A stretch of DNA of 64,000 nucleotides from an uncultured Gammaproteobacteria bacterium. Its GTDB lineage: Bacteria > Patescibacteriota > Microgenomatia > UBA8517. How positions within the stretch are numbered: the stretch's first letter is position 1; each line of letters begins with the position of its first letter. A program made the position numbers and the translations under genes. The notes beneath the pieces are model-generated. The model was not told the origin of the DNA. It made no database searches and saw only the letters and a program-made list of their open reading frames with translations. Shown one piece after another: positions 8,185-64,000 of this stretch. Location: NCBI GenBank assembly GCA_964429215.1, contig CAYSAY010000001.1:118127-182126 (forward strand), read 5' to 3'.

Positions 8185-8203
8185 GATTCAATATAAAAAT
8201 ATT

Positions 8204-8530
8204 ATGAGCATTCTATTTTTCGACAAATTAATTGTTCTAGATAAATTGGATAATCATATCAAAAAAAGATATGAGTCAAATGAAGAGAGACAAGAAATTT
8301 GGCAAATTGTAGAGGAAATTTTGCATCATAAGGTAATGGGTTGTGTCTTAAATCATTTACCTAAAATTCACCATAATGAATTTTTAGAAAAATTTCATAA
8401 ACATCCATATGATGAAAGTATAATTGAATTTTTGAGTGAGAAATCAAAAAAAGATATGAAAAAAATAATTAAAGAGGAGATTAAGCTACTAACTAAGGAT
8501 CTCCTCCTTCTTGACTCTCACAAAGTGTAG
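8204..8530 (+). CDS. hypothetical protein (108 aa)
   Basis: ORF only. Charged, helical-looking. No recognised family. Confidence 0.3.
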   Translation: MSILFFDKLIVLDKLDNHIKKRYESNEERQEIWQIVEEILHHKVMGCVLNHLPKIHHNEFLEKFHKHPYDESIIEFLSEKSKKDMKKIIKEEIKLLTKDLLLLDSHKV

Positions 8531-48296: not shown

Positions 48297-49390
48297 AGTC
48301 AATAATTTTAGCAATTGTTGTTTCTTTAATACTGGTTTTTGCACTTCCTGTTAACGCCCAAGAATGTGGTGGAGATGTAAACCAAAGAATTCAATGCTAC
48401 GAGAGTAATATTATAAAACTTAAAGATTCAGGAAAGACATTATCTAATCAAATATTACAATTTGATTCTTCAATGAAACTTACAGAGTTAAAAATTGCTC
48501 AAACAGAAGAACAAGTTGGATTGTTAGTTGGAAGGATTGATCAGCTTGAAGGTTCTCTTGATTCGCTTTCAATTGCATTTTCAGAAAGGGTAGTTGAAAC
48601 CTATAAAATGGCAAGAGTTGGTGATCCATTTCTTTTGTTACTTTCCTCAGACAACTTAAATGAGGTTTTTAATAGATTTTCATATCTTAAGAAAATTCAG
48701 GATGGGGATAGAACATTACTTCAAAGACTTCAGAAAGCACAAGATACTTATAAAGAAGAAAAGGTAGATCAAGAAGAATTACAAAAAAAATTAGAAACAC
48801 AAAAATCACAATTAAATACTCAAAAATTAGCAAAGAAAGCGTTACTTGATCAAACGAAGAATGATGAAAAAAAGTATCAAACATTGTTAAATCAGGCACA
48901 AGCAGAAAAAGCTGCAATCGAAAAAGCTTTGGTCTCTGGTACTAAAGTAGGACCTGTTAAAGCTGGGGATCCGATTGCATTAGTAGGAAATTCTGGATAT
49001 CCAGGTTGTTCTACTGGAAAGCATCTTCATTTTGAAGTCAGAAAAAATAATACATGGGTTGATCCTGCGCCATATTTACAGAGTAAGTCAATTCAAGATG
49101 AAGAAAAAGGAGTGACTGCAAATATTGGTTCTGGTGGTTGGCAATGGCCACTGTCTGATACTATCAGAATGACACAGCATTTTGGTCATACTCCATGGTC
49201 TTGGAGATATTCATATTCAGGTGGAATTCATACTGGCTTTGATATGGTTTCAACAGGAAGTGACGTAATTAAAGCTCCAGCAGACGGAAATTTATTTAAG
49301 TCGTCTGAATCTTGTGGAAGTAGTAAAATAAATATAGTTTACATTGAACATGCAGACAATGTCATAAGTTTTTACTTACATGTCCAGTAG
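48293..49390 (+). CDS. M23 peptidase with N-terminal coiled coil (EnvC-like murein hydrolase/activator)
   Basis: Signal peptide, long coiled coil, and M23 motifs GNSGYPGCSTGKHLHFEV and HTGFD. Confidence 0.8.
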   Translation: MKSIILAIVVSLILVFALPVNAQECGGDVNQRIQCYESNIIKLKDSGKTLSNQILQFDSSMKLTELKIAQTEEQVGLLVGRIDQLEGSLDSLSIAFSERVVETYKMARVGDPFLLLLSSDNLNEVFNRFSYLKKIQDGDRTLLQRLQKAQDTYKEEKVDQEELQKKLETQKSQLNTQKLAKKALLDQTKNDEKKYQTLLNQAQAEKAAIEKALVSGTKVGPVKAGDPIALVGNSGYPGCSTGKHLHFEVRKNNTWVDPAPYLQSKSIQDEEKGVTANIGSGGWQWPLSDTIRMTQHFGHTPWSWRYSYSGGIHTGFDMVSTGSDVIKAPADGNLFKSSESCGSSKINIVYIEHADNVISFYLHVQ

Positions 49391-50231
49391 CATATTAATG
49401 CGATATAAAAAAAGAATATATATTGTACTAACATTATTATTTTTAATTCTTCCAAGGGGGGTTACTGCTTCAATCTTAATAAATGAGATATCTCCATCAA
49501 CTGATACTGAGTGGGTTGAATTATATAATGACAGTAGTTCTGAAGTTGATCTTTCAGGTTATTTACTAGAAGACGGAAATTCAAGCCGTAACGACGATAT
49601 CAACTTAAGTGGTATTATTTCAGGGAATGGATTTGTTGTTTTTACCCATGTTGAAGGTTGGTTAAATAATGGCGGAGATACAATAAAGCTTTACAATAAC
49701 GCGTCTCCATCGGCAATCATTGATCAATATACTTATGGTGGTGTTGATTCATCAAAAAGTATTGCAAGGATTCCAAATGGTAGTGAAAATTGGCAAACTA
49801 CAACAAACATAACAAATAATTCATCGAATCCATCGCCAACAACATCACCTACTCAAGATCCTACAAATACACCTACTGCAACACCTACGAAAACTGCAAC
49901 TCCAACTCCTATTGGGACACCAAAACCAACTCCAACAAAGACACCAACTGCAAAACCTACAACGACTTCAACACCTTCTGAAGAGCCTGAAGCGACAGAA
50001 AAACCAAGTATAAATTTAGAATTTGGTACAGGTAATGTAGTTGATGATCAAAGCACCCCTACTTCGATGGTAGCAGGTAGTTCAACAGAGAAAAAATCTC
50101 CTGTTTTGGCTATTATTTTTATATTTTCAGGAGTTTGTTTTCTTGGATATGGTGGCTATATGCTATATAATAAGAATCATCCGAATGATCAAAAACGCAG
50201 TTTACAGACAGAAAATATTCAAAATTCTTAA
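49380..50231 (+). CDS. Lamin-tail-domain (LTD) surface protein with Pro/Thr-rich linker and C-terminal TM
   Basis: ILINEISPSTDTEWVELYNDSSSEVDLSGYLLED is the LTD signature. A PT-rich segment follows, and the C-terminus is hydrophobic. Confidence 0.65.
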   Translation: MSSSILMRYKKRIYIVLTLLFLILPRGVTASILINEISPSTDTEWVELYNDSSSEVDLSGYLLEDGNSSRNDDINLSGIISGNGFVVFTHVEGWLNNGGDTIKLYNNASPSAIIDQYTYGGVDSSKSIARIPNGSENWQTTTNITNNSSNPSPTTSPTQDPTNTPTATPTKTATPTPIGTPKPTPTKTPTAKPTTTSTPSEEPEATEKPSINLEFGTGNVVDDQSTPTSMVAGSSTEKKSPVLAIIFIFSGVCFLGYGGYMLYNKNHPNDQKRSLQTENIQNS

Positions 50232-50631
50232 TTTTTGGTTACCTCCTATTCTTTGGGCAAGTGCTATATTTACTGTCTCTTCTTTTTCAGTTGGTAGTTC
50301 TAGTGAATTTTATTGGAAAGATTTTGTTATTAAAAAAACAGCACATATAATCGAGTATGGAATTCTTGCCACATTGGTTTACAGAGCCTTGGTGAATTAT
50401 GGAGTATTGAAAAGAAAGGCAATGATTTATGCTTGTTTAGTTGCACTTCTATATGGTGCCACTGACGAATTCCATCAGTCTTTTACTCCTGGACGAGGAC
50501 CTAAAGTAACTGATGTCGCAATTGATACTGCTGGGGCAAGTATTTTTATTTTTGGTATAATTGGAAGACTAAACAAAATGCCGGTATTTGTCCAAGATGT
50601 TTACAAAAAGTTAGAAATTATAACAGTTTAA
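50185..50631 (+). CDS. VanZ-like family membrane protein
   Basis: DEFHQSFTPGRGPKVTDVAIDTAGA VanZ motif. Start moved to an internal Met to limit overlap. Confidence 0.6.
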   Translation: MIKNAVYRQKIFKILNFWLPPILWASAIFTVSSFSVGSSSEFYWKDFVIKKTAHIIEYGILATLVYRALVNYGVLKRKAMIYACLVALLYGATDEFHQSFTPGRGPKVTDVAIDTAGASIFIFGIIGRLNKMPVFVQDVYKKLEIITV

Positions 50632-50640
50632 AATAAATAT

Positions 50641-51618
50641 ATGAAAATTTTGATTACAGGTGGAGCAGGTTACATTGGTAGTTTCATGGTTAGAAAATTG
50701 AAAGATGAAGGTCATGAAGTCATCATTCTTGATAATCTTTCAAATGGACATACTGAAGCTGTTAGCGAATTTCGATTAGAAAATATTGATCTTGTAACAG
50801 AAAAACAAAAGTTAGAAGCACTTTTTCAAGCTGAGAAATTTGATGCAGTTATTCATATGGCATCTTTTATTCAAATGGGAGAAAGTTTTAAAAATCCGTC
50901 TAAGTATTATATTAATAATGTGCTTGGATTTATTAATTTACTTGATGTGATGGTTATTAATAACTGCAAAAAATTAATAATCTCTTCTTCTGCAGGAGTT
51001 TATGGAAATCCAGTAAGACTCCCAATTAAAGAAGATGATCCAAAGAATCCACTTAACCCATATGGAGAAACAAAATATATGATTGAAAGAATCGCAGATG
51101 ATTATGATTTGGTTTATGATTTAAAATATATAACTTTTAGATATTTTAATGCTGCTGGAGCTGCACTTGATGGTTCAATTGGAGAAGCACATATAGAAGA
51201 AAGCCATTTGATACCAAATGTAATTGCAAAGATGGCTAAGAATGAGGAATTTGAACTTTTTGGAAGTGATTATGAAACTGCTGATGGTACATGTGTAAGA
51301 GATTATATTCACGTGTTAGACCTTGTTGATTCTCACGCTTTAGGATTAAAGGCATTAGAAGAAGGTGCTATGAGTAATAATTATAATATTGGTATCGGCA
51401 AGGGATATTCCAATATGGAAGTTATTAAAATGATTGAAGAAAAGTCAGGGATGAGAGTTAATATAAAATTTGGACCAAGAAGACAAGGGGATGCAAATGC
51501 ATTGTATGCATCAAATAAAAAGATATTTGATGAACTTGGTTGGACTCCTAAATATGATTTAGACATTATTGTCGAATCTGCTCTTAAGTGGCACAAATCA
51601 CATCCGGAAGGTTATTAA
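50641..51618 (+). CDS. galE: UDP-glucose 4-epimerase
   Basis: GGAGYIGS Rossmann motif, the YxxxK pair YGETK, and GalE-like length and C-terminus. Confidence 0.85.
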   Translation: MKILITGGAGYIGSFMVRKLKDEGHEVIILDNLSNGHTEAVSEFRLENIDLVTEKQKLEALFQAEKFDAVIHMASFIQMGESFKNPSKYYINNVLGFINLLDVMVINNCKKLIISSSAGVYGNPVRLPIKEDDPKNPLNPYGETKYMIERIADDYDLVYDLKYITFRYFNAAGAALDGSIGEAHIEESHLIPNVIAKMAKNEEFELFGSDYETADGTCVRDYIHVLDLVDSHALGLKALEEGAMSNNYNIGIGKGYSNMEVIKMIEEKSGMRVNIKFGPRRQGDANALYASNKKIFDELGWTPKYDLDIIVESALKWHKSHPEGY

Positions 51619-52256
51619 CAATCTTCTAATTTTTGAATATTCTCTATTATAAATTTTTTACCTTTGTGGAAAATTAATTTTTTAGTTCTCAACTTTTCTA
51701 TAGAAATGGAAGTTGTTTCTCTCGATATACCTGCAAAATTTGCAATGTCTTGATGGGTTAGGTCTATATCTATTTCTATATTGTTGTCGTCATTAATATG
51801 TCCGAATCTTTTTGCTAGCATTGCTATTATAATTGCAACTTTTTTAGTTGAATTTGATTTAATAACATTCTTAGTAGTATGAATTAGACCGTCTAGGCTG
51901 ATTAATAAGCGTGTTGCTAAATCCTTAAATATTTTTGGATTAGATTCCAAAAAAGCTACAACATCTTCTTTTGGTGCCCTATATACTACAATGTTTGACA
52001 TTGCTTTATAAAAATAAACGTTTTCTACTTCTGCAAGTGCCCAAGTCATTGGAAAAAATGATTCTGGTTTAAAGATATTAAATGCAATTTCTGTACCATT
52101 TTCATATATCGAGCTCATTTTGATGTATCCACTTTTTATAAAATATACACCATTGGGAGTGTCGTCTCCACGTATGACGATATCCCCTTTTGAATAGCAT
52201 ATTTTTCGATAGTTACTAAAAAAAGCCATTAGTTTGATTCTTAGATCGATGTTCAT
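51615..52256 (-). CDS. Crp/Fnr-family transcriptional regulator
   Basis: N-terminal cNMP-binding beta-roll and C-terminal HTH (QDIANFAGISRETTSISIEKL). Divergent from the glycosyltransferase operon. Confidence 0.75.
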   Translation of the reverse strand: MNIDLRIKLMAFFSNYRKICYSKGDIVIRGDDTPNGVYFIKSGYIKMSSIYENGTEIAFNIFKPESFFPMTWALAEVENVYFYKAMSNIVVYRAPKEDVVAFLESNPKIFKDLATRLLISLDGLIHTTKNVIKSNSTKKVAIIIAMLAKRFGHINDDNNIEIDIDLTHQDIANFAGISRETTSISIEKLRTKKLIFHKGKKFIIENIQKLEDC

Positions 52257-52372
52257 GTGAAAGTGTGAGAATTATAACAGACTTATAGTAAAAAATCTAA
52301 CTGAATAGATGTTTTGGTTCAATTACTATATACAAACGAATCTGCATTTATATGTGGATTCTTTTTTTAGAC

Positions 52373-53070
52373 ATGAAAAAGCTAGATATTATAATCCCAG
52401 TACTGAATGAGGCTGATAATCTTCAGCCGCTAGTTACGCAAATAGATAAAGTTTTAGGTGCAAAAAAAATCAGTTATAGGTTAATTATTGTTGATGATCA
52501 TTCCAGTGATGGAACTTCAGAATTGATAAAAAAGTTAAGTATTAAATATCCAATCATTTTTAAATTAAAGGAAGGAAGCAGGGGCAAGGCATATTCGATA
52601 TTGGAAGGAGTAAGTTTCGCAGAATCTGAATTTGTGGCGATGATTGATGGAGATTTACAATATTCACCATCTTATATTCCAGAGTTATATGAAAAGGCTG
52701 TATCAGAAAACCTTGGAGTGGTTGTTGCTAATCGGGTTAAACATAAAGAAGGAATGTTACGAAAGATTGGGTCAAAAGTAGTTAAATTTATAGCGTGTAG
52801 CTTAATGGGCCAAAGTGTTGATTTTCAATCAGGGCTTAAAATATTTAAGCGGGAAGTTGTTAATCATTTAGATAAATCAAATATTAAGCCTTGGGCTTTT
52901 GATATACCTCTTATTCACACTGCTTTGGAGTTAGGAGAAAAGATTGGAACAGTTGATATAACCTTTGAACCGCGACTACATGGTAAATCAAAGTTTAACT
53001 TTATGACAAGTTTAGTAGGTGTAACTGAAGTAATGGTCGGGCTTTTAAAATTAAAACTTAAACCTACTAG
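52373..53070 (+). other. Domain 1: GT2, polyprenol-phosphate hexosyltransferase-like (DPM1/GtrB/ArnC type)
   Basis: IIIPVLNEADNL...IIVDDHSSDGT...DGD. Confidence 0.7.
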
Positions 53071-56000
53071 AGTATTTCATTTAAAGCCAACAGAAAATTT
53101 AACAATGAAGGGGGCGGGAATTGTGTATAAAAGAAATAAATTTTTAACTCATACAACGCTTAATCATAACAATTCTGCAATAGTAACTTTTACCCGTGGG
53201 CAGATTTCAGTTATTTTTATGATTTTATCTGCTTTTGGGGTTGGGCTTATATTATCAACCCAAACTACATTAATAGTTTTTGTGGCAATTCTATCTTTTG
53301 TTTATTTTGCAGATGTGTTTTTTAATCTTTATTTAGTTTTAAAAAGTCTTCATTTTCCACCTGAATTAATGTTTGAAGATAATGATTTGGTAAATATCAA
53401 AGAAAGTTCGTTGCCTTTATATACAATTTTGTGTCCACTTTATCACGAATCCGGAATTTTACCTCAATTTGTAGATTCAATTAATAAAATGGATTATCCA
53501 AAAAATAAGCTTGAAGTATTACTTCTCTTGGAAGAAGATGATACAAAGACAATCGAAAGTGCTAGAAGTTTAAAATTACAAAAGCATTTTAAAATAATTG
53601 TTGTTCCTCATTCACTACCAAAAACTAAACCCAAAGCTTGTAACTATGGATTGGCACATGCCAAAGGTGAATTTGTAGTTATATATGATGCAGAGGATAT
53701 TCCAGATCCATTTCAGCTTAAAAAAGCAGTTTTAGGATTTAATAAGTTAGGTAAAAGTTATTCTTGTCTCCAAGCAAAACTTAACTATCATAATCCAAAT
53801 CAGAATTTACTCACAAGACTTTTTACATCTGAATATAGTTTATGGTTTGACATTATGCTGCCTGCGTTACAAACAATTAATACAACAATACCATTAGGTG
53901 GAACAAGCAATCATTTTAGAAGAGAAGACCTTAACAAATTTGAAGGATGGGATCCATTTAATGTTACTGAAGATGCTGATCTTGGAATTAGACTTTTTAA
54001 AGCTGGTGGAAAAACTGCAATTATAGATTCCGTAACTTTAGAAGAAGCAAATAGTAATTTAAAAAATTGGATAAGACAAAGGTCAAGGTGGATTAAGGGT
54101 TATATGCAAACATACTTTGTGCATATGAGAAACCCTTGGCAGTTTGCTAAGGATCATGGAAGACATTGGTTAGTTTTTCAACTTGTTTCAGGGCTTCGTA
54201 TTTCTTTTATGTTAATTAATCCAATTTTATGGGGGTTAACATTTTCTTATTTTTTACTATATAAATTTGTAGGACCACAAATTGAAAGTTTGTATCCATC
54301 TGCAGTTTTTTATATGGCTATAACGTCAGCTGTATTTGGAAACTTTTTGTATATCTACTACTACATGATAGGAACTGCAAAGCATGGACAATATCAATTA
54401 ATTAAATATGTATTTTTAATTCCTATTTATTGGGTATTTACTAGTATTGCAGCAACTGTTGCTTTTTGGCAGTTACTCGTAAAACCTCATTATTGGGAGA
54501 AAACAATTCATGGATTAACTAAAGAAGAGAAAAAGAAAATATTATTCAAGTTTGAGTTTGCAGGTCTTAAAGAGTTTGGATTTAGTAGTTTTAATAAGAT
54601 TAAAAGTTTTTCAAAAAGTTCGTTAGCTAGTGGTGCATTCTTAATATTTGCTTCAATGTTTGCAAATGTAATGAACTTTTTGTATAACGCCTATTTAGGG
54701 AGAAAGTTAGATTTAGATGATTTTGGATTAATAAGTTTAGTTGGAAGTTTTATCTTTTTGTCACAAGTACCACTTTCTGCACTTTCGAGAACTGTTACAC
54801 ACAGAAGTGCCTTTTTGTTTGGTAGGTATGGTACTGCAGTCACAAATTTTTGGAAAAATACTCGATCAAAGTCGGTAAAAATATCATTTTTGTTTACAGC
54901 TGTTTGGATTTTACTTACACCTTATTTAATGAATCTATTTAAAACAGATCAATTTTTGCCATTTTTGATATTTGCACCAACATGGATAATTGGATTTGCT
55001 GAAGCTGTTGATGGAGGGTTTATAAAAGGTAATCTAAACTTTTATGTTTCAGGAGTCACGGTGATTACTGAAGCTGTTACTAAGCTTCTGCTGGCAATTT
55101 TAATAGTAACATTAGGTTTTGATCATTGGGTTTATTTGTCAATTCCACTTTCTATGTTTTCGGCCTTCCTGATAAGTTGGCATTTTGCTAGAAAAATTAA
55201 ACAGAATGTTGAAGTAGAAATTGAAGTTGAAAATTATTTTCCAAGAGCATTTTATTCAACATCAATTTTGACTAAAATATCATCAATTGCGTTTCTAAGT
55301 TTGGATTTAATTCTTGCTAAAATTTATTTAAGTCCAACGGACGCGGGTCTTTATTCATTACTTTCTTTAGCTGGGAAAATGGTTTATATGTTTGGAACAC
55401 AGTTTTCTCAATTCATATTGCCAATAGTAAGTAAGAATGAAGGAGAGGGCAGAGATTCTTTGAAGTCATTTTACAAACTTTTTTTGATGACCACTGTAAT
55501 TAGTTTGTTAGGTTTTTTGGTTATCGGAATTTTTGGATATGTAACAGTTCCATTATTATTTGGAAATAGGGTGCTACCAATTGTTACATATCTACCTTAT
55601 TTTGCTTTTGCAATGGCAATACAAGTTTTGTCACAGGCAATTGTAAACTATTATCAATCAAAAAATAATCAAATATTTCCTGTTGTTAATTTTGTAGTCT
55701 CATTCTTTACTATTTTTAGTGTCATATTTATACATAATAGTATCACTTCAATTGTAAACATTATGTTTATATCTTCCCTGGTCAGTTTTACAGTAATGCT
55801 TGTTATGCATATATTTGTAAAGCAAATCAATATATTAAAAAGCAATTTATTAGATTTGTCAGGGGTATTTAAAAAGTTGCCTTTAACTAATATAAATGTG
55901 GATTCTAATTTAAATATATTAATATTTAACTGGAGAGATACAAAACATGTATGGGCTGGAGGAGCTGAAGTTTATGTACATGAAATTGCGAAGAGGTGGG

Positions 56001-57070
56001 TAAAAGCTGGTCACTTAGTTACTGTATTTTGTGGAAATGACAGAAAATCTCCAAGGAATGAAGTAATCGATGGTGTGCAAATGGTTAGGAGAGGTGGATT
56101 TTATACTGTGTATTTTTGGGCGTTTCTTTATTATATATTAAGATTTCGAGGTAAGTATGATGTTGTCATTGATAATGAAAATGGTATACCATTTTTTGCC
56201 CCCCTTTATGTAAAGGAACCAGTAATTGGACTTGTTCATCATGTTCATCAAGAAGTGATATTAAAGAAATTAAAATTGCCGAAGTATCTTATTCCAGTAG
56301 GTTTGATTGCAGTGTTTATTGAACGATATTTAATGCCAATAATATATAAAAATACTCAAATGATTACTGTGTCAGAATCATCAAAAATTGATATGGAGAA
56401 AATTGGTCTGGGTAAAATTAAGCCAATATTGATTGTAAATCCAGGAGTTGATCTGTCTTTGGTTAAACGATTTAAGAAAACAACCGCACCAAGCCTTCTT
56501 TTTGTAGGAAGAATAAAGGCATATAAATCAATAGATACTTTGATAAAAGTAGTATTTGTAATCAAAAATGATATTCCAAATATAAAATTAAATATTGCGG
56601 GATATGGAGAAGAACAAAAAAACTTAGAAGTTTTAGTTGCTAAGTTGGGTATTCAGGATAATGTAAATTTTTTGGGTAAAATTTCAGATTTAGAGAAATA
56701 TGAATTAATGTCTAAATCTTGGGTATTTGTTTATCCGTCTACATTTGAAGGTTGGGGCATTTCTGCAATAGAAGCGAATGCCTCTGGTACTCCCGTAGTT
56801 GCTTCAGATGTGGCAGGACTGCGTGATTCAGTAAATGATGGTGTCTCGGGTATGTTAGTTGAAGCAAAGAATGTAGATCAATTTACATCAAAAATATCGG
56901 AAATAATTAATAATAAAAAATTAAGAAACAGTCTCTCTAGAGGTGGCATAAAATGGGCAAGTAATTTTGATTGGTCTAATAGTTCCCACTTATTTATTGC
57001 CTATATCTATAATTATTTGAACGCAAGTAAAAATTATAAATTATCAAATTCAGATTACGATTTAACATGA
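52373..57070 (+). CDS. Giant multidomain glycan-synthesis protein: GT2 (DPM1/GtrB-like), processive GT2 (QxxRW) with TM bundle, Wzx/MOP-flippase-like 12-TM domain, and GT4
   Basis: Single uninterrupted 1565-aa ORF (1572 aa from the track start). Domain-defining motifs are listed in the four domain features that follow. Confidence 0.8.
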   Translation: MKKLDIIIPVLNEADNLQPLVTQIDKVLGAKKISYRLIIVDDHSSDGTSELIKKLSIKYPIIFKLKEGSRGKAYSILEGVSFAESEFVAMIDGDLQYSPSYIPELYEKAVSENLGVVVANRVKHKEGMLRKIGSKVVKFIACSLMGQSVDFQSGLKIFKREVVNHLDKSNIKPWAFDIPLIHTALELGEKIGTVDITFEPRLHGKSKFNFMTSLVGVTEVMVGLLKLKLKPTRVFHLKPTENLTMKGAGIVYKRNKFLTHTTLNHNNSAIVTFTRGQISVIFMILSAFGVGLILSTQTTLIVFVAILSFVYFADVFFNLYLVLKSLHFPPELMFEDNDLVNIKESSLPLYTILCPLYHESGILPQFVDSINKMDYPKNKLEVLLLLEEDDTKTIESARSLKLQKHFKIIVVPHSLPKTKPKACNYGLAHAKGEFVVIYDAEDIPDPFQLKKAVLGFNKLGKSYSCLQAKLNYHNPNQNLLTRLFTSEYSLWFDIMLPALQTINTTIPLGGTSNHFRREDLNKFEGWDPFNVTEDADLGIRLFKAGGKTAIIDSVTLEEANSNLKNWIRQRSRWIKGYMQTYFVHMRNPWQFAKDHGRHWLVFQLVSGLRISFMLINPILWGLTFSYFLLYKFVGPQIESLYPSAVFYMAITSAVFGNFLYIYYYMIGTAKHGQYQLIKYVFLIPIYWVFTSIAATVAFWQLLVKPHYWEKTIHGLTKEEKKKILFKFEFAGLKEFGFSSFNKIKSFSKSSLASGAFLIFASMFANVMNFLYNAYLGRKLDLDDFGLISLVGSFIFLSQVPLSALSRTVTHRSAFLFGRYGTAVTNFWKNTRSKSVKISFLFTAVWILLTPYLMNLFKTDQFLPFLIFAPTWIIGFAEAVDGGFIKGNLNFYVSGVTVITEAVTKLLLAILIVTLGFDHWVYLSIPLSMFSAFLISWHFARKIKQNVEVEIEVENYFPRAFYSTSILTKISSIAFLSLDLILAKIYLSPTDAGLYSLLSLAGKMVYMFGTQFSQFILPIVSKNEGEGRDSLKSFYKLFLMTTVISLLGFLVIGIFGYVTVPLLFGNRVLPIVTYLPYFAFAMAIQVLSQAIVNYYQSKNNQIFPVVNFVVSFFTIFSVIFIHNSITSIVNIMFISSLVSFTVMLVMHIFVKQINILKSNLLDLSGVFKKLPLTNINVDSNLNILIFNWRDTKHVWAGGAEVYVHEIAKRWVKAGHLVTVFCGNDRKSPRNEVIDGVQMVRRGGFYTVYFWAFLYYILRFRGKYDVVIDNENGIPFFAPLYVKEPVIGLVHHVHQEVILKKLKLPKYLIPVGLIAVFIERYLMPIIYKNTQMITVSESSKIDMEKIGLGKIKPILIVNPGVDLSLVKRFKKTTAPSLLFVGRIKAYKSIDTLIKVVFVIKNDIPNIKLNIAGYGEEQKNLEVLVAKLGIQDNVNFLGKISDLEKYELMSKSWVFVYPSTFEGWGISAIEANASGTPVVASDVAGLRDSVNDGVSGMLVEAKNVDQFTSKISEIINNKKLRNSLSRGGIKWASNFDWSNSSHLFIAYIYNYLNASKNYKLSNSDYDLT
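53400..54500 (+). other. Domain 2: processive GT2 (cellulose/hyaluronan/NodC/PgaC-like) with C-terminal TM helices
   Basis: YDAED, TED and QRSRW, flanked by hydrophobic helices on both sides. Confidence 0.7.
54600..55830 (+). other. Domain 3: MOP-superfamily (Wzx/polysaccharide-transporter-like) multi-TM domain
   Basis: SLASGAFLIFASMFANVMNFLYNAYLGRKLDLDDFGLISLVGSFIFL resembles the Wzx/PST N-terminal signature. About 12 hydrophobic helices. Confidence 0.55.
55905..57067 (+). other. Domain 4: GT4 (group-1 glycosyltransferase)
   Basis: LLFVGR, and EGWGISAIEANASGTPVVASDVAGLRDSV (the E-x7-E GT4 motif). Confidence 0.75.
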
Positions 57071-57855
57071 GAAAATACAAATTAATTAAATTATTATCAA
57101 AAAATCAAAAATATACTATTGGACTCTATTCAGATCGAGATGGTAATAAATTTGTCATAAAATCTATTGCAGGAGATGGTAGTATTATTACTCGTAAATT
57201 ATTGCTAAATGAATTTACAATGGTAAATATTTTGTCTCAAAAATATAATAAAATATTACATTTTCCAAAAGTAAAAGAATTTATTAAGAATGATAAATCT
57301 ATGTATATTGTGTATGAATATATTAAAGGCAAAGTATTAACTAAACATGACAATAATTACCAGTTAAAAGTTATTAATAAATTGCTTTTGGAGTTGAAAA
57401 GTATGACCAATTTATTAAACGATGAAGATAGAAAAAAAATTAAAATACATAATAAACTATTTTATATGTCTTCTTTACCTATATTATATTTTTTTGCAAT
57501 TCTAAATAATTACAAACATATAAATATTATTACTTTAGCATTTAAAAAATGTATATTTTCTTTTAAAGAACTTGTTAAAAGTCCGTTGACTTTAACACAT
57601 CGTGATATTAAACCAGATAACATAATTATTAAAAACAAAGAAATATATTTATTAGATTGCGAACAAATGGTCTTAACTTATAGCGAGTACGATATAAACA
57701 AAATCTATTTAGATCACAATGGAATGCATATTAATTCTCACACATTAAACGTAGTTTTAATGAATTACATTTGTTTAAGTTATTGTTCATCTTTTGGAAA
57801 GAGAAGTTTATATTCGAATAAATATATCAAAATGTTGTACAAAATAAATAATTAA
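57067..57855 (+). CDS. Protein-kinase-like fold small kinase (APH/LPS-kinase/Kdo-kinase-like), putative sugar kinase
   Basis: Catalytic-loop-like LTHRDIKPDNIII and the DFG-equivalent LLDCEQ. Extremely AT-rich. ATGA overlap with the upstream gene. Confidence 0.5.
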   Translation: MRKYKLIKLLSKNQKYTIGLYSDRDGNKFVIKSIAGDGSIITRKLLLNEFTMVNILSQKYNKILHFPKVKEFIKNDKSMYIVYEYIKGKVLTKHDNNYQLKVINKLLLELKSMTNLLNDEDRKKIKIHNKLFYMSSLPILYFFAILNNYKHINIITLAFKKCIFSFKELVKSPLTLTHRDIKPDNIIIKNKEIYLLDCEQMVLTYSEYDINKIYLDHNGMHINSHTLNVVLMNYICLSYCSSFGKRSLYSNKYIKMLYKINN

Positions 57856-57856
57856 T

Positions 57857-59071
57857 ATGAAATTATTAATAGCACCATTACATTACGTTGCGGATAAGTA
57901 TGAAGGTAGCGAATATACACGGGCTTATGACTATCTAGAATATTTATCTAGACAAAAAGATATCAATGGTGATGTGCTAGTTGGATATTGCAGTGAAAAG
58001 AAGATGGGCAACTTAAAAATAATATCTATGTTTAAGAGAAAGCCAACTTATATTTCTAACATTATCAGATTACAGTTTGTTGTTTGGATCTTCATCAAGT
58101 GGCTACTGTTGAAACTTAGAAATAACTATGATGTTATTTGGCACAATGGTCCGTTTTCTCTAAATGAGACGTTTTCACTTGTAGCAATTTTAAATAAATC
58201 CACGCCATTTATAATTGGGCCAATAGTTACGCCACATCAATATGTGAGCGAAGACGAGTCTCGTTCAATGGGTAAGAAAATATTTAAAAGAAACTTGTTG
58301 CAAATCGTTTTAAAAAAGATTGATCACTTGACATATCCATTGTCGAAAGTTTTTAGGTATTTGTCATATCTAACGTTAAGGAAAAGTAAGCTAGTTTTGG
58401 TGAAAGAAACTGATTGTTTAAAGTTAATAAATAAATATGATTTTAGAAATATAATAGTACATAATATGGGATTAAATTTAAAAGAATTTGGTTTCAATCA
58501 TGCTAAATATATCAATGCTAATGTTGTAAATATTATTACAGTTAGTTATTTAGTGAAGCGGAAAGGTGTAACAGACCTTGTTGATATTATGAATTATTTG
58601 ATTAAATCTAGAAAAAGAACAAATTATCGATTAAAAATAGTTGGTAGTGGGCCTGAATTTGATAATATAAAAAGAAAAATAAAAGAGTTGAATTTAAGTA
58701 AGTATATAAAACTTGTTGGATTTGTCACTAAGAAATTAATACATAAATACTATGAGAATTCTGACTTATTTGTTACCACAACATTGTCAGACTCAATGCC
58801 TGCCATGTACTTTGAGGCTATGGCATCTGGGTTACTGGTCATTAGTTACGATAACCCAAGTGTTAGAGAGCTTAAATTAAAAGGAGCTAAGATAGTAACC
58901 TCAGAAGTTGGTAATATATCAAATTATGCTAAATGTATTATGGATAATACAAAAGATAGTAATAAATTAATGGCATTAGGTAAGGCAAATTATAAATTAT
59001 CTAAAGAAGAATTTAGTTTTGAGAAAAAAATGGAGATGTTTACAAGTTATTTAGAAAAGTTAAAAAAATGA
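57857..59071 (+). CDS. GT4-family glycosyltransferase
   Basis: C-terminal FVTTTLSDSMPAMYFEAMASGLLVISYD (the E-x7-E motif) and the Rossmann-like ITVSYLVKRKG. Confidence 0.7.
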   Translation: MKLLIAPLHYVADKYEGSEYTRAYDYLEYLSRQKDINGDVLVGYCSEKKMGNLKIISMFKRKPTYISNIIRLQFVVWIFIKWLLLKLRNNYDVIWHNGPFSLNETFSLVAILNKSTPFIIGPIVTPHQYVSEDESRSMGKKIFKRNLLQIVLKKIDHLTYPLSKVFRYLSYLTLRKSKLVLVKETDCLKLINKYDFRNIIVHNMGLNLKEFGFNHAKYINANVVNIITVSYLVKRKGVTDLVDIMNYLIKSRKRTNYRLKIVGSGPEFDNIKRKIKELNLSKYIKLVGFVTKKLIHKYYENSDLFVTTTLSDSMPAMYFEAMASGLLVISYDNPSVRELKLKGAKIVTSEVGNISNYAKCIMDNTKDSNKLMALGKANYKLSKEEFSFEKKMEMFTSYLEKLKK

Positions 59072-60582
59072 AATACAACATTTTAAGTAAATTAGGAAAC
59101 GTAATAATATTATTTTTTGTTATTATTGTGGTAACTATAACAATCAAGGGTTCAAGTGATATTAAATATTATCAAAATAATATTGATACGAGAATGTTTG
59201 GACCATTTGAGACTTCAAATAATTCATCAAGATTTGCTTTAACGGAAGCTATTGTTAAAAATAAAAGCCTGTTTTTATCTGATGAATTAGCTTCTGTTGC
59301 TTCGCCAGATCTTACAAAAATTAATGGTAAATTTATAACAATATTTACTCCGGGTATTTCTTTTATGGGACTTCCATTTTACTACTTAGGTTATAAATTT
59401 GGTTATCCACAAATTAGCACTTATTTGTTAAGTTCTTTTATTTCAATTATCAATATATATTTGATAGCAAACATATTGCTAAAACTTAAAATGAATAAAT
59501 GGATAAGTATATTCTGTGGATTAATATATTTATTTGCCACAAATTCGTTATCATATTCAAATTCATTTAATCAGCATCAAGTAAGTACGTTTTTGTTGTT
59601 ACTTTCAATTCTGTTGTCAATAAAACCGATTACTTATCTAAATAATTTGATATTTGGAATTATTTATGGGATTGCCATATTGGTTGACATACCAAATGCG
59701 CTTTTACTACTCCCGATATTAACATACCAAGCATGTAGAAATGTAAGAGTAATTCCTGAAAAGAAAATATATTCTTTAAAAATAAATACATCAATATTGC
59801 TTATTGTTATGGGCTTATTACCTTCAATGTTTCTTTTTGGGTGGTATAACCGTAGTGTTACGGGAGATTATTTAAAATTAGGACAAGTTTATGGTAGATA
59901 TATCTATACCAATACTAGGATAGAGGATGTTGTTGAAATATCAAAAAAGAAAGACAAAAGTGAATTTAAACAATTTGATTCAAGACGATTATTAAGTGGC
60001 CTTACCGTATTGTTATTTAGTCGCGACCGAGGAATAGTTGTGTATTCTCCAATATTTATATTCGGTATTGTGGGTATGATAATTGCTAGTAAAAGAAAAA
60101 ACAATTATTTAAATATTATTTTACTATCTACTGTGATTATGAATTTAATTGTCTACTCGTTGTTTAATGATCCTTGGGGAGGTTGGGCTTTTGGTCCGAG
60201 GTACTTGATACCGTCGAATGCAATTTTGTCATTACTAATTGCATTTACTATAAATAAATATTATAAGAATTTACTGTTTATTTCTATCTTAGGGATAGTA
60301 CTTATATATTCGGTATCAATAAATGTATTAGGAGCATTGACAACACAATTAGTTCCTTCAAGTGTACAACTTCCTTTTTTAACAGGAAAGGTATCTGACA
60401 CTTTTCTTTATAATTATTCATTTTTGAAATCTAACATGAGTAGCTCGTTGTTTTACAATTTGTTATTGGCTGATCATATTAATTTTGCTAATTTTGTAGC
60501 AATTGTGGTTATTGCAATGATTATATTTTTTGGGGTGATATATTTATTAATTTTAAAAGATAAAAACAAATCCCATGAATGA
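59068..60582 (+). CDS. GT-C fold membrane glycosyltransferase (PMT/ArnT-like, GT39/GT83-type)
   Basis: At least 10 TM helices. The first extracytoplasmic loop carries an acidic motif (RFALTEAIVKNKSLF) in the position of the GT-C DE/DD motif. Confidence 0.55.
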   Translation: MKYNILSKLGNVIILFFVIIVVTITIKGSSDIKYYQNNIDTRMFGPFETSNNSSRFALTEAIVKNKSLFLSDELASVASPDLTKINGKFITIFTPGISFMGLPFYYLGYKFGYPQISTYLLSSFISIINIYLIANILLKLKMNKWISIFCGLIYLFATNSLSYSNSFNQHQVSTFLLLLSILLSIKPITYLNNLIFGIIYGIAILVDIPNALLLLPILTYQACRNVRVIPEKKIYSLKINTSILLIVMGLLPSMFLFGWYNRSVTGDYLKLGQVYGRYIYTNTRIEDVVEISKKKDKSEFKQFDSRRLLSGLTVLLFSRDRGIVVYSPIFIFGIVGMIIASKRKNNYLNIILLSTVIMNLIVYSLFNDPWGGWAFGPRYLIPSNAILSLLIAFTINKYYKNLLFISILGIVLIYSVSINVLGALTTQLVPSSVQLPFLTGKVSDTFLYNYSFLKSNMSSSLFYNLLLADHINFANFVAIVVIAMIIFFGVIYLLILKDKNKSHE

Positions 60583-62191
60583 AATTAATTTAAAGATAAG
60601 CAAAAAATTTGTAGAAAAAGCAAAAAGTTTTTTTGATTTGTATAATTTATCTATAATTGTTATTTTGCTTGTTTTGGTGTCAATCAGTTTTTTTTATTTT
60701 TACCTAAATAATAAATTAGGACTCTCCTATAACGATGCTAGATCACACTTAGATATTGGTAGAAGAGTTGTTGAAAGTCTAAAGCCTGGAATTGCACAGC
60801 TTGGATCTGTTTGGTTACCGTTAAACCACGTGTTAATGATTCCTTTGATTTGGAATGATTGGGCATGGCACTCTGGTTTTGCTGGTGCGGTTTGGAACAT
60901 GATTTCATTTGTTGGTACAGGAGTATTGATTTATAAAATTTTAGAGATTTTTAATGTCAAATTAATTGGGAAGTTGTTTGGTGTCTTGGTTTTTGCAGCG
61001 AACCTGAATGTTTTGTATTTGCAGTCTACTGCGATGACTGAACCGCTTCTTTTGGCTACCATGACTGCTGGTTGTTACTACTTACTACTTTGGGCGAAGG
61101 ACGAAAGAGTAATTAATTTAGTTAAATCTTCGTTTTGGGTTATGATGGCAACACTTGTACGATACGATGGATGGTTTTTGCTATTGTTTTCTGTAGCTGT
61201 TGTTGCAATCTTAATGTTTGTTAAGCGAGGATACCGTGTATCTGAAGGACTGGTTGTGATGTTTGCGACGATGGGTGGGTTTGGTATATTTTTATGGTTT
61301 GTCTGGAATTGGGTTATATTTTCAGACCCTCTTTACTTTATACTTGGACCTTTTTCTGCTCATGCACAGCAGTTGGTAATGGAGGAAGCAGGTGCATTAC
61401 CAACAAAATATAACTTGTTATTATCCACTCAAGTTTATTTGTATTCCGTATTTTATAATTCTATAACTACAACTGCATTACTTGGTTTTTTTGGGGGGGT
61501 AATAATGTTGTTTGATAAGAAAATAAAACCTGAACTTAGGTTTGCGAGTATTGCTTTGATGTCACCTTTATTTTTTAATATTGCATCTTTATTCTTTGGA
61601 TTTTCTGTTATTTTTATTCAAGGGATTTCTGGAGATACTTGGTTTAATGTTCGATATGGAGTTATGTTAATGCCAACCTTTGCTGTATTTATTGGATACT
61701 TGATTAACAGATTCTCAAATTTGAAATGGGTAATTATTGGAACATTTTTATTTGTAACGTTTTTTGCCTTTGCAAATAATGATTCTGTGGCAATGGACGA
61801 TGCTCGCGTTGGATCTTCACAAAAAAATGTTGCTGAAGTATCTGGTTGGTTGGAAAAAAATACAAAGGACAAAAAAGGTTTTATATTAATTTCTGCTGCT
61901 TCTCATGATGCTATTATATTTTCTAGCAATCTTCCTATGAAGAAGTTTATACATGAAGGAACAGGTAAGTATTGGGAATCTGCAACTACAACACCTGATA
62001 GATGGGCAAGATGGATAGTTCTTAGAACCTATGATAAGAATGATTTATCTTATCAAGCTGTTGGAGATTTAACTAGTTTTAAGACAATGTATAATTTAGT
62101 TGATTCCTATCCATTTGCTGACATTTATGAATTAAAAGAAGAATATTTAAATAATTTAAATACGGAAGCAAATCTTGGAAAGCAAAAGTAA
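60575..62191 (+). CDS. GT-C fold membrane glycosyltransferase (PMT/ArnT-like), second paralog with C-terminal soluble domain
   Basis: Multi-TM protein. The loop motif SYNDARSHLDIGRRV lies in the first external loop. C-terminal soluble domain of about 130 aa. Confidence 0.55.
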   Translation: MNEINLKISKKFVEKAKSFFDLYNLSIIVILLVLVSISFFYFYLNNKLGLSYNDARSHLDIGRRVVESLKPGIAQLGSVWLPLNHVLMIPLIWNDWAWHSGFAGAVWNMISFVGTGVLIYKILEIFNVKLIGKLFGVLVFAANLNVLYLQSTAMTEPLLLATMTAGCYYLLLWAKDERVINLVKSSFWVMMATLVRYDGWFLLLFSVAVVAILMFVKRGYRVSEGLVVMFATMGGFGIFLWFVWNWVIFSDPLYFILGPFSAHAQQLVMEEAGALPTKYNLLLSTQVYLYSVFYNSITTTALLGFFGGVIMLFDKKIKPELRFASIALMSPLFFNIASLFFGFSVIFIQGISGDTWFNVRYGVMLMPTFAVFIGYLINRFSNLKWVIIGTFLFVTFFAFANNDSVAMDDARVGSSQKNVAEVSGWLEKNTKDKKGFILISAASHDAIIFSSNLPMKKFIHEGTGKYWESATTTPDRWARWIVLRTYDKNDLSYQAVGDLTSFKTMYNLVDSYPFADIYELKEEYLNNLNTEANLGKQK

Positions 62192-62196
62192 CTAAT

Positions 62197-63168
62197 ATGA
62201 AATTAAAAATTATAATAGTTTTATTAATAATATCTATCTCTGCTTTTGCATATATTAAATTGTCAAAATCAGAAAAAATTATAATTCCTGAAAAAAGATG
62301 GAAAGTAACTTCCATTGATACTGTTAAATATTCAAGAGATTTGGCAAGAGAAAAAGAAAATAATGAAGAATTTTTAAACACAATTGATAAACAAGTTAAG
62401 GTAATTGCAGAAACAGGTGCTACTCATATATCAATTGGAACTCCGTATGATGAAGAATTTATTCCATTTCTAACAAAGTGGGTAAAGTCGGCACGTACGT
62501 ATGGATTAAAAGTATGGTTTAGAGGAAATTTTTCAGGGTGGGAAAAATGGTTTGGGTATCCAAGAATAGATAGAGATGAACATAAAAAATTAGTTGCAGA
62601 ATTTATTAATAAAAATGGTGAATTATTTGAAGACGGTGACATATTTACTAGTTGTCCTGAATGCGAAAATGGTGGTCCTGGAGATCCACGTCAGAATAGT
62701 GATCTAGAAGGTCATAGACGATTTTTAATTGATGAATATGCAATAACAAAAAATGAATTTAGATCAGTTGGCAAGAATGTAACTACTAATTATTTCCCAA
62801 TGAACGGTGATGTAGCAAGGCTTGTAATGGATATGGAAACAACAAGAAATTTAGGTGGAATTGTGACCGTAGATCATTATGTACGTGATCCTGAAAAATT
62901 AAATAATGATTTGACAGAACTTGCCTTGTTATCTGGTGGGAAAATAGTACTTGGTGAATTTGGTGCACCAATTCCTGATATACATGGTCAAATGACAGAG
63001 GGTGAACAATCTGATTGGGTGGGTAAAACAATGGAATTGTTAAGTGGTAATAGTAATGTTATTGGTATTAATTATTGGACGAATAAAGGAGGATCAACTG
63101 AAATATGGAATAAAGATTATTCCCCAAAAAAGACAGTTGAAGTACTAACAAGATATTTTAAAATGTAA
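62197..63168 (+). CDS. Putative clan GH-A (TIM-barrel) glycoside hydrolase, signal-anchored
   Basis: N-terminal TM. Candidate acid/base ...CENGGPGDP and nucleophile ...IVLGEFGAP, which resemble the GH5/GH113 NEP and TEFG positions. This is a weak call. Confidence 0.35.
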   Translation: MKLKIIIVLLIISISAFAYIKLSKSEKIIIPEKRWKVTSIDTVKYSRDLAREKENNEEFLNTIDKQVKVIAETGATHISIGTPYDEEFIPFLTKWVKSARTYGLKVWFRGNFSGWEKWFGYPRIDRDEHKKLVAEFINKNGELFEDGDIFTSCPECENGGPGDPRQNSDLEGHRRFLIDEYAITKNEFRSVGKNVTTNYFPMNGDVARLVMDMETTRNLGGIVTVDHYVRDPEKLNNDLTELALLSGGKIVLGEFGAPIPDIHGQMTEGEQSDWVGKTMELLSGNSNVIGINYWTNKGGSTEIWNKDYSPKKTVEVLTRYFKM

Positions 63169-63169
63169 G

Positions 63170-63838
63170 TTACATGTATCCTTCAGGATACATTGTGTAT
63201 TCTTCTTCTCTGTTTGTTGATTTTGTTATAGCAATAATTTTTTCTGTGACTTCATCAACTGTTAAATATTTTTTACCAAGTCTTTCTAATTCCTTTCTTT
63301 TATCTATTCCACCAGTACCAAAAGGAGTCATAATACTTCCAAGTGTGAACAAGCAGACATCAATATGTTTTGGTTTTAGTTCCCTGTGTAGTGAAAGACT
63401 TAACCCTCTTAGTGCAAACTTTGATGAACAGTATGATGATCTGTCTGCTGCACTAATTACTCCCATTCCTGAACCAATATTAAAAATCAATGGGTTTTCT
63501 GAAGACCGCATATTACTGGATAAATATTTTGAAAAGATAAATGGTGCTGTTACATTTATTGCAAATGCAGTTTCCCATTCTTCTACACTTAAGTCTTCTA
63601 TGTTTTTATATATGCCAATACCTGCTATATTGTATAAATAATCGATGTTTGGAAATTTGGCTTTTAACGTTTCAGCTAATTTTATAACATCTTGAGGTTT
63701 TCTAAAATCACAACTATATTCTTGTTCTAAATCAATAGATACGCATTTAACGCCACACTCATTTAGTTTTTTAACTAGTACGCTTCCTATTGCTCCGTTT
63801 GCACCAGTTATGACTGCGATTTTTCCCTTAATGTCCAT
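63170..63838 (-). CDS. Short-chain dehydrogenase/reductase (SDR) family oxidoreductase
   Basis: TGANGAIGS cofactor motif. NIGSG and the YxxxK active-site motif (SYCSSKFA). Confidence 0.8.
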   Translation of the reverse strand: MDIKGKIAVITGANGAIGSVLVKKLNECGVKCVSIDLEQEYSCDFRKPQDVIKLAETLKAKFPNIDYLYNIAGIGIYKNIEDLSVEEWETAFAINVTAPFIFSKYLSSNMRSSENPLIFNIGSGMGVISAADRSSYCSSKFALRGLSLSLHRELKPKHIDVCLFTLGSIMTPFGTGGIDKRKELERLGKKYLTVDEVTEKIIAITKSTNREEEYTMYPEGYM

Positions 63839-64000
63839 TAGTAATTATACCATATAATCGGTTTAATCCGTTGACTTATACACAATAAAATTGTATACTA
63901 AACGATAATAATTACTGCTCCAATTATTAACAATATTAATTGATTTTAATGAGAATTTCATTAAGTTTATTTATCGCTTTAATATTATTACTTACTAATT

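Follow-up and report, generated by a model that had tools for sequence, protein, structure and literature searches.

What would a bacterium of the candidate phyla radiation (CPR) build with a giant glycosyltransferase fusion, two further membrane-embedded transferases and a signal-anchored hydrolase, all encoded in one tight operon, and on which side of its membrane? This question is raised by a locus near the end of the stretch analysed here, 64,000 nucleotides of contig CAYSAY010000001.1 (assembly GCA_964429215.1, positions 118,127 to 182,126), which we call the window and whose GC content is 0.27-0.35. The original prediction, made from the letters of the window alone, had proposed an extracytoplasmic glycosylation system. 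Our calls of GT-C and GT2 glycosyltransferases (GT), of a MOP-type domain and of a clan GH-A enzyme, together with synteny and natural fusions in related loci, support this proposal. We lean towards reading the locus as a conserved system by which Microgenomates-type CPR assemble a glycan of their cell envelope, and which would work on both faces of the membrane from lipid-linked donors. The genes that matter for this reading are listed below, with protein lengths in amino acids (aa).

50641-51618, plus strand: galE, UDP-glucose/UDP-GlcNAc 4-epimerase, sugar-nucleotide supply (TIGR01179, 389.6 bits against a cutoff of 262.3; Pfam Epimerase, 1.9e-55)
52352-57070, plus strand: giant GT fusion of four domains, 1572 aa
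57067-57855, plus strand: small kinase-like protein, cytoplasmic, 262 aa (Pfam Pkinase and APH matches below cutoff)
57857-59071, plus strand: stand-alone GT4, 404 aa (Pfam Glycos_transf_1, 1.6e-23)
59068-60582, plus strand: 504-aa membrane protein, PMT_2-related GT-C (PMT_2 matches in homologues)
60575-62191, plus strand: 538-aa membrane protein, GT-C of an unannotated, very conserved family (AlphaFold2 model, distant relatives)
62197-63168, plus strand: 323-aa signal-anchored clan GH-A-like TIM-barrel protein (AlphaFold2 model, invariant Glu)

The map of open reading frames (ORFs) of the window places every gene exactly where it had been predicted, and the tight junctions are reproduced as well: ATGA overlaps join the giant gene to the kinase gene and the GT4 gene to the 504-aa gene, the 504/538 junction reads ATGAATGA, and the other gaps measure 1-5 nt. 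Among the window proteins, the Crp/Fnr, GT2, GT4 and short-chain dehydrogenase/reductase (SDR) domains score above Pfam cutoffs. The 504-, 538- and 323-aa proteins have no Pfam match, and we regard them as products of real genes because they have many full-length homologues (213, more than 2189 and 2463, respectively). An identical copy of the entire gene string is present on a metagenome contig of the European Nucleotide Archive (ERZ27247837:k141_2432886). The homologues that bear a plausible name all come from Patescibacteria or Microgenomates, which agrees with the CPR-like setting proposed at first.

The giant fusion protein and the GT-C pair

The 1572-aa protein is a fusion of four domains, an ArnC/DPM1-type GT2, a BcsA/PgaC-like GT2, a Wzx/MOP-like domain and a GT4, which divide the gene as follows.

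52352-53191, plus strand: domain 1, about aa 1-280, polyprenyl-phosphate-sugar-synthase-type GT2, DPM1/ArnC/GtrB-like (PDB phmmer)
53249-54511, plus strand: domain 2, about aa 300-720, membrane-embedded BcsA/PgaC-like GT2 (BcsA match, motifs)
54539-55906, plus strand: domain 3, about aa 730-1185, MOP/Wzx-type flippase-like multi-span domain (transitive Pfam matches)
55919-57070, plus strand: domain 4, about aa 1190-1572, GT4 with GT-B fold (Pfam Glycos_transf_1, 5.8e-44; Glyco_transf_4, 2.5e-15)

The best phmmer relatives of domain 1 in the PDB are the DPMS of Pyrococcus (5mlz, 6.8e-18), ArnC (7.8e-17) and GtrB (1.5e-12). Indeed, the seven best PDB sequences are all polyprenyl-phosphate GTs (DPMS, three ArnC and three GtrB), and the first non-lipid GT2 ranks eighth, at 1.7e-8. 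These seven relatives place domain 1 among the lipid-acceptor-type GT2s, as had been predicted, and not among GT2s for other acceptors. In NCBIfam its best matches are ArnC, PgfS and AglJ, all below their equivalog cutoffs. The true start of the giant ORF may be its eighth codon, the Met at 52373 (MKKLDIIIPVLNE), and an N-terminus that begins there is of the usual kind for GT2 enzymes. A terminator-like hairpin (52338-52361) overlaps the annotated start of the gene.

Domain 2 carries the motifs DAED, TED (TEDADLG) and QRSRW, read in translation; motifs of the DAED/TED/QxxRW type are the signature of membrane-embedded processive synthases. Its best PDB relative is the cellulose synthase BcsA (7e-11), and it matches the NCBIfam model PgaC_IcaA with 95 bits over positions 3-393 of 407. 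Judged by these matches, domain 2 is a BcsA-like GT2 of a predicted processive type. The own Pfam match of domain 3 is near full-length and weak (Polysacc_synt, E 0.04), and searches of PDB sequences and profiles returned nothing useful for it. Among 29 homologous domains from related loci, five match Polysacc_synt (1.8e-8), three Polysacc_synt_3 (1e-11) and one MatE. It is through these transitive matches (9/29) that the flippase-like domain of the original prediction can be recognized as a putative divergent MOP/Wzx-type domain.

We then have to ask whether the two membrane proteins downstream are GT-C enzymes. The 504-aa protein itself has no Pfam match, and PDB sequence and profile searches gave nothing useful; its homologues, of which 23 out of 50 aligned (30-59% identity) match PMT_2 (PF13231, best E 2.5e-8), point to a PMT_2-related GT-C. 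Its score against the NCBIfam model for the LA_3751/LA_3752 putative GT is 50.4 bits, below the cutoff of 200. The 538-aa protein is matched neither in Pfam or NCBIfam nor in PDB sequence and profile searches. An AlphaFold2 model built from 45 homologues (pLDDT 80, pTM 0.80) was compared with the PDB by Foldseek, and the top 32 matches are all GT-C enzymes or GT-C-fold proteins, the glycosylphosphatidylinositol transamidase subunit PIG-U included. They comprise STT3 (E 2e-5, TMq 0.57) and ArnT (5f15, TM-score 0.51) and, further, AftA, PglB, AglB, AftB, PIG-M, AftD, Emb, Pmt4 and ALG9. A profile search over 1.84 billion representatives yielded 2662 relatives of the 538-aa protein; among ten distant ones of full length, seven reach the gathering score of PMT_2 and one that of PMT, which is also matched by one of the 45 close homologues (5.8e-5). 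Moreover, the 504 and 538 families align with each other in hhalign (E 3.8e-5, probability 71%, 262 columns) and have an (F/G)xRY motif in common. The 538-aa protein thus belongs to the GT-C superfamily, in a family invisible to existing profiles, and both GT-C calls of the original prediction are supported.

The loop that follows the first transmembrane segment of the 538 family (TM1, helix 10-45) is nearly invariant (YNDARSHLDIGRRVVE, Y52-N-D-A-R-S-H-L-D-I-G-R-R-V-V-E67), with D54 and E67 conserved in 100% and D60 in 98% of the members. In GT-C enzymes, the catalytic acidic residues sit in the first extracytoplasmic loop after TM1. We infer from this position that D54, D60 and E67 may be catalytic in the 538-aa protein. 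On the contrary, one could suppose that neither the 504- nor the 538-aa protein is catalytic, and that both serve a synthase complex as scaffolds or transport subunits, in a role similar to that of BcsB, and have only kept a GT-C-like fold; the 538-aa protein itself, after all, matches no catalytic GT-C profile. Such a role is highly improbable in view of the invariant charged residues D54, R56, H58, D60, R63, R64, E67 and K70 at the GT-C catalytic position, of the R-Y motif conserved in both GT-C families, and of the relatives in which a donor synthase is covalently fused.

The structural matches raise another alternative, namely a Wzx-dependent en-bloc transfer, in which an undecaprenyl-pyrophosphate-linked oligosaccharide would be flipped by the MOP domain and one of the GT-C proteins would act as an oligosaccharyltransferase or ligase onto protein or peptidoglycan. 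STT3, PglB and AglB are the best Foldseek matches of the 538-aa model, and the MOP-GT4 module is the most conserved upstream element of the related loci (40/58). The sequence affinity of the two proteins is, however, to PMT_2/ArnT-type enzymes and not to STT3, a WWDYG-type motif occurs in 0/95 aligned family members, and the inspected loci hold no priming phosphoglycosyltransferase, so that we give this possibility a very small chance.

Two class assignments were considered and dropped. An oligosaccharyltransferase of the STT3/PglB/AglB kind was rejected on the motifs WWD or WW[DE][YWF]G, found in 0/45 and 0/50 aligned members, and a GT39 protein O-mannosyltransferase proper on the profiles PF02366 and MIR, neither of which is matched by either window protein.

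The putative hydrolase partner, gene order and natural fusions

The 323-aa protein has a single hydrophobic segment, at its N-terminus. PDB sequence and profile searches gave no useful match, and its AlphaFold2 model (pLDDT 87.9) is a TIM barrel with 253 Foldseek matches in the PDB at E<=1e-3. The 50 best that are listed all belong to clan GH-A (GH2, GH113, GH5_18, GH53, GH30 and GH164; E about 1e-7, TM-score 0.55-0.60), and the signal-anchored TIM-barrel hydrolase candidate that had been predicted is upheld by this fold. In the family, E155 and E157 ('CPECENGG') are invariant and follow a short strand near residue 149 (strand 4); E254 ('LGEFG'), located where strand 249-255 (strand 7) ends, is likewise invariant. 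H227/Y228 and W294 are also conserved throughout. This pattern of conserved Glu would be expected of a retaining GH-A enzyme. Most relatives carry an extra C-terminal domain that resembles CarboxypepD_reg. The parallel drawn at first with the hydrolases of synthase-dependent exopolysaccharide systems is strengthened, since domain 2 of the giant protein is BcsA-like and of the processive type. Filing the 323-aa protein under GH5 was considered and rejected on hhalign, which found no similarity to the GH5 domains that are fused to 538-like proteins in some relatives.

To what extent is this arrangement conserved? A 538-like protein is present in at least 468 species-representative genomes, and the carriers with an informative name are all Microgenomates (Woese-, Gottesman-, Ames-, Curtiss-, Levy-, Davies- and Shapirobacteria). 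We compared gene order in 81 non-redundant genome loci and 80 more divergent metagenome loci (about 160 in total), some counts being made on 84 loci.

504-like gene directly upstream of 538-like gene: genome loci 67/73; divergent metagenome loci 52/64
GH-A-like/GH5 partner: genome loci, adjacent 54/76, within 4.5 kb 56/58; divergent loci, fused or within 2 kb 53/58
Sortase downstream: genome loci 48/58 (within 5.5 kb); divergent loci 16/39 (within 4.5 kb)
LAxTG protein downstream: one family in 61/84 loci; divergent loci 17/39 (within 4 kb)
Giant-type GT4 upstream: genome loci 47/58; divergent loci 27/32 (within 8 kb)
MOP domain: fused to GT4 in 40/58 genome loci; divergent loci 19/32 (within 8 kb)
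BcsA-like GT2: genome loci 31/58; divergent loci 23/32 (within 8 kb)
ArnC-like GT2: genome loci 15/58; divergent loci 10/32 (within 8 kb)

The counts of 504-like, 538-like and GH genes thus single out GT-C, GT-C, GH as the stable core. The synthase/flippase/GT4 module is commonly present, and the donor-synthase GT2, the kinase, the SDR, extra GTs, methyltransferases and deacetylases are variable. Hence, the operon as first described is kept in related loci as far as its GT-C, GT-C, GH core is concerned, but not as a whole: the ArnC-like GT2 lies in the locus in about a quarter of cases. Between candidate phyla, the GT-C and GH-A-like families still share 55-87% identity. In a complete Woesebacteria chromosome (locus L004), a gene for a CE4 polysaccharide deacetylase (7762-8472) stands immediately upstream of the GT-C pair, which hints at an N-acetylated glycan in that lineage.

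Natural fusions tie the same parts together. A 504-like and a 538-like protein are fused in P0362; a 538-like protein is fused to the GH-A-like enzyme in P0371, P0380, P0424, P0492 and L152, and to a Pfam GH5 domain with the canonical NEP motif in P0370, P0382, P0388, P0400 and others. The BcsA-like GT2 is joined to a 538-like protein in six proteins, one of them from a Ktedonobacteraceae genome, and P0433 unites both types of GT2 found in the giant protein (GT2a, the ArnC/DPM1-like, and GT2b, the BcsA-like) with a 538-like protein. Moreover, three loci encode an ArnC-like GT2, a 538-like protein and a GH5 domain in one chain of 1092-1120 aa (L094, 1770-5045; L104, 4102-7461; L153, 7165-10521), in which the ArnC model scores 66-92 bits; each of these triple fusions lies directly downstream of a stand-alone BcsA-like GT2. 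The kinase, for its part, is found in some relatives as a C-terminal extension of the giant protein or as an N-terminal extension of the 504-like protein (L027 and L034, with ORFs of 1192 and 1148 aa, respectively; L024; L025; L076). The order cytoplasmic GT2, membrane GT-C, extracytoplasmic GH is topologically coherent, and the fusions are direct genomic support for the logic that leads from donor synthase to GT-C. For both GT-C proteins, the ArnC-like GT2 fused to the 538-like protein in L094, L104 and L153 would fit a lipid-phosphate-linked sugar donor.

Candidate acceptors and accessory genes

What receives the sugars? Downstream of the 323-aa gene, the end of the window cuts a further gene of interest.

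63949-64000, plus strand: LAxTG sorting-signal protein, first 17 codons (the window end reads MRISLSLFIALILLLTN)

The full gene can be read in locus L001 (13375-13929, about 184 aa), where a sortase gene then occupies 13898-14428; this part is outside the window. In the 61/84 loci, one family of secreted LAxTG proteins of about 190 aa lies between the GH-A-like gene and the sortase gene. Its members are built from a signal peptide, a four-cysteine domain of about 110 aa and a variable S/T/G/N-rich stalk, and they end in a VLGLA(S/T/A/F)TG sorting signal, a transmembrane segment and a basic K/R tail. LAxTG is the signal of class E sortases (PMC11231552). The sortase domain encoded here scores 72 bits in Pfam and fits no NCBIfam class. 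By its motif, transmembrane segment, basic tail and adjacent sortase gene, the LAxTG protein is a predicted sortase substrate. It is a stronger candidate acceptor than the Pro/Thr-rich (PT-rich) proteins that had been suggested from the window. One of these (49380-50231) is an LTD-domain protein with a C-terminal transmembrane segment, and the two others (42192-42890 and 43957-44640) combine a transmembrane segment, a PT-linker and a LytR_C domain. They are still plausible targets of O-glycosylation, but we found nothing that ties LTD or LytR_C proteins to the locus. Past the end of the window, L001 (16021-21100) also carries a second sortase gene and large secreted ORFs of 411, 733 and 343 aa, which have no match in Pfam or NCBIfam.

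The LAxTG protein leads to the question of protein O-glycosylation, in which PMT_2-type GT-C enzymes would put sugars from polyprenyl phosphate on Ser/Thr-rich linkers, first of all on the LAxTG substrate, with the PT-rich LTD and LytR_C proteins as possible further targets, in a manner that resembles actinobacterial Ppm1/Pmt O-mannosylation. Several observations agree with it: PMT_2 and PMT profiles find matches in both GT-C families, GT2a is DPM1/ArnC-like, the LAxTG protein with its S/T/G/N-rich stalk is encoded directly downstream in the 61/84 loci, and PT-rich membrane proteins are encoded nearby. We nevertheless judge it unlikely. The fused or adjacent endo-type GH-A/GH5 enzyme and the fusion of a BcsA-like GT2 to a GT-C argue for a polymer substrate; the linkage to LAxTG protein and sortase falls to about 40% in the divergent loci, while the GT-C, GT-C, GH core stays; and the window proteins show neither a MIR domain nor a direct PF02366 match.

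The polymer and the LAxTG protein could also be parts of a single product. In this Microgenomates-specific, wall-anchored proteoglycan route, the LAxTG protein and the sortase would act together with the GT-C pair and the GH-A enzyme: the BcsA-like synthase would make a glycan, elaborated from lipid-linked donors, the 538-aa GT-C, helped by the GH-A enzyme as a transglycosylase, would join it to the Ser/Thr-rich stalk of the small surface protein, and coupling of the product to peptidoglycan by the sortase would follow. We hold this route to be speculative, and its probability to be low. If true, it would be independent of LCP enzymes and would link a polysaccharide to the wall through a protein adaptor.

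The stand-alone GT4 has NCBIfam matches that include EpsE, BshA and Mgs-like families, all far below the family cutoffs. It bears on a lipoglycan of the lipomannan/lipoarabinomannan or lipoteichoic type, in which GT4 enzymes would make a glycolipid anchor inside the cell, the MOP domain would flip it and the GT-C enzymes would extend it outside with polyprenyl-phosphate sugars from GT2a. The parts mirror PimA/PimB' (GT4), Ppm1 (GT2) and PimE/MptA/MptB (GT-C), and the weak matches of the GT4 to glycolipid-anchor GTs (Mgs, 51.6 bits; IagA/BgsA) would fit. On the contrary, the BcsA-like GT2 and the GH would have no role there, although no other parts are fused as tightly to the 538-like GT-C, and every GT4 match remains far below its family cutoff. 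We see a slim chance for such a lipoglycan, and continue with a cell-envelope glycan, decorated outside the membrane, as the product that we favor.

The 262-aa protein has no membrane segment. An alignment of 20 members shows no exchange at H180, D182 or D199 and very few at K34 and N187, and the catalytic loop in the window sequence reads HRDIKPDNI; the protein carries the catalytic set of protein-kinase-like enzymes, i.e., the Lys, the HxD...N loop and the metal-binding Asp. In a PDB profile search, it matches Ser/Thr kinases and APH/choline kinases about equally and weakly, and Pfam, NCBIfam and PDB profile searches place it in no protein-kinase or small-molecule-kinase subfamily. The family is present in 35/84 loci.

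Three further features belong to the borders of the operon.

51615-52256, minus strand: Crp/Fnr-family regulator, divergent from the operon (Pfam cNMP_binding, HTH_Crp_2, Crp)
52264-52279, no strand assigned: TGTGAGAATTATAACA, candidate CRP-type operator within the 95 bp that separate the divergent Crp/Fnr and giant genes
63170-63838, minus strand: SDR, convergent (Pfam adh_short, 6.2e-32)

The palindrome at 52264-52279 is the sole match to TGTGA-N6-TMACA in the 64-kb window, where 0.51 would be expected, and it is a candidate CRP-type operator by its sequence and position. The divergent Crp/Fnr arrangement recurs in the related locus L002, and the regulator probably controls the operon. The SDR gene sits elsewhere within the cluster in L002 and is missing from most related loci; it is an accessory gene whose position varies between relatives. 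Two envelope- or glycan-related neighbors lie upstream of galE, a VanZ-family membrane protein directly (50143-50631) and a PIG-L family de-N-acetylase farther away (37902-38708).

A proposed scheme for envelope glycan assembly and its precedents

How could these proteins work together? On the cytoplasmic face, GalE would supply UDP-sugars and the ArnC/DPM1-like GT2 domain would load sugar onto polyprenyl phosphate. The BcsA/PgaC-like GT2 domain would synthesize a beta-linked glycan backbone and thread it outward, and the two GT4s and the small kinase would elaborate a lipid-linked or nascent intermediate. The fused MOP/Wzx-like domain would carry a lipid-linked donor or intermediate to the outer leaflet. 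There, the 504- and 538-aa GT-C enzymes, probably as a heteromeric pair, would use the lipid carrier as the source of sugars with which they branch or extend the glycan, and the membrane-anchored GH-A-type enzyme would trim, release or transglycosylate the product. In Microgenomates, this product would be functionally tied to the sortase-anchored LAxTG protein, which may serve as a carrier or acceptor or be a wall component assembled along with it.

Several points weigh against this scheme. Activity, donor sugar, lipid carrier and acceptor are all deduced from family membership, and the linkage and the tie to the LAxTG protein are conditional in the same way. The MOP flippases classically carry undecaprenyl-pyrophosphate-linked oligosaccharides, which favors en-bloc transfer over a decoration by single sugars. 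Neither the ArnC-like GT2 nor the kinase belongs to the core, as their counts in the related loci (15/58 and 35/84) indicate. Neither a priming phosphoglycosyltransferase nor an LCP ligase was seen in the inspected loci, a search that did not extend to the rest of the genome, and hhalign detects no sequence-profile similarity between the GH-A-like family and the fused GH5 protein.

It is an established principle that a lipid-linked donor feeds a GT-C enzyme outside the membrane. Among the systems that have been worked out, the streptococcal GacI/GacJ/GacK/GacL side-chain system comes closest, and GtrA/B/C, CsbB-GtcA-YfhO and ArnC-ArnE/F-ArnT are related three-component systems. In group A streptococci, GacI (GT2), GacK (Wzx-family) and GacL (GT-C) decorate the group A carbohydrate, a wall polysaccharide (10.1101/180810). 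Our locus has in common with Gac a GT2 of the type that makes polyprenyl-phosphate-sugar, a putative flippase, which is of the Wzx family in Gac too, and a GT-C that would transfer the sugar to a polymer outside the membrane. Unlike Gac, it fuses the GT2, the flippase-like domain, a processive-type GT2 and a GT4 in one 1572-aa protein; it has two tandem GT-C paralogues, among them the profile-invisible 538-aa family, an obligatory GH-A/GH5 partner and a linked sortase substrate; and it lacks genes for an ABC-exported rhamnan backbone.

As in BcsA/BcsZ and PgaC/PgaB, a TED/QxxRW membrane GT2 is genetically coupled here to an extracytoplasmic clan GH-A enzyme of the endoglycanase type, and the likeness extends to clostridial ccs with its GH5 CcsZ and to plant CesA/KORRIGAN. 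Unlike the BcsA and PgaC systems, this locus has no BcsB, PilZ, cyclic di-GMP module or outer-membrane export parts, and its glycanase is fused or adjacent to a GT-C transferase, which those systems lack. In the actinobacterial Ppm1/Pmt and PimE/Mpt/Emb/Aft pathways, a PMT_2-clan GT-C depends on a DPM1-like polyprenyl-phosphate-sugar synthase, as would be the case here, and GT-C enzymes are often paired, as in Pmt1-Pmt2 and EmbA-EmbB. The system described here differs from them by the absence of MIR and CBM domains, by families that are only remotely related, by its distribution in CPR and Chloroflexota, and by its GH partner and BcsA-like GT2. In Actinomyces oris, finally, GspA, LcpA and SrtA link a sortase-destined surface protein to envelope glycan machinery (PMC6381275). 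Here too a surface protein for sortase anchoring is encoded beside such machinery. An LCP phosphotransferase transfers the glycan in A. oris, whereas the loci inspected here have no LCP gene; moreover, the CPR sortase belongs to no NCBIfam class, and glycosylation of the LAxTG protein is hypothetical. In the literature that we searched, we found no description of this cassette or of a GT-C/GH5 fusion. What is new is the architecture, the unannotated GT-C family, the obligatory GH partner, the mega-fusion, the linkage to a sortase substrate and the breadth from Microgenomates to Chloroflexota.

No member of the Microgenomates, which make up a large part of the CPR, has been cultured, and their cell surface is thought to mediate an attachment-dependent lifestyle. 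To our knowledge, almost nothing is known of the chemistry of this surface. Most of the protein families for which Microgenomates show enrichment are hypothetical, and a membrane location is predicted for many of them (Méheust et al. 2019, PMC6744442). The identity that the GT-C and GH-A-like families keep is unusually high for CPR proteins. The fusions, an ArnC-like GT2 with a GT-C and a GH5 and a BcsA-like GT2 with a GT-C, define a compact, undescribed architecture that reaches Chloroflexota too, and the fused proteins are attractive structural and biochemical targets for the channelling of lipid-linked donors to GT-C enzymes. These results should be of interest for specialists of CPR and of glycobiology. 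In conclusion, this locus allows at least three widespread families of hypothetical proteins to be named and placed in a scheme that can be tested: the GT-C, the GH-A-like enzyme and the LAxTG protein.

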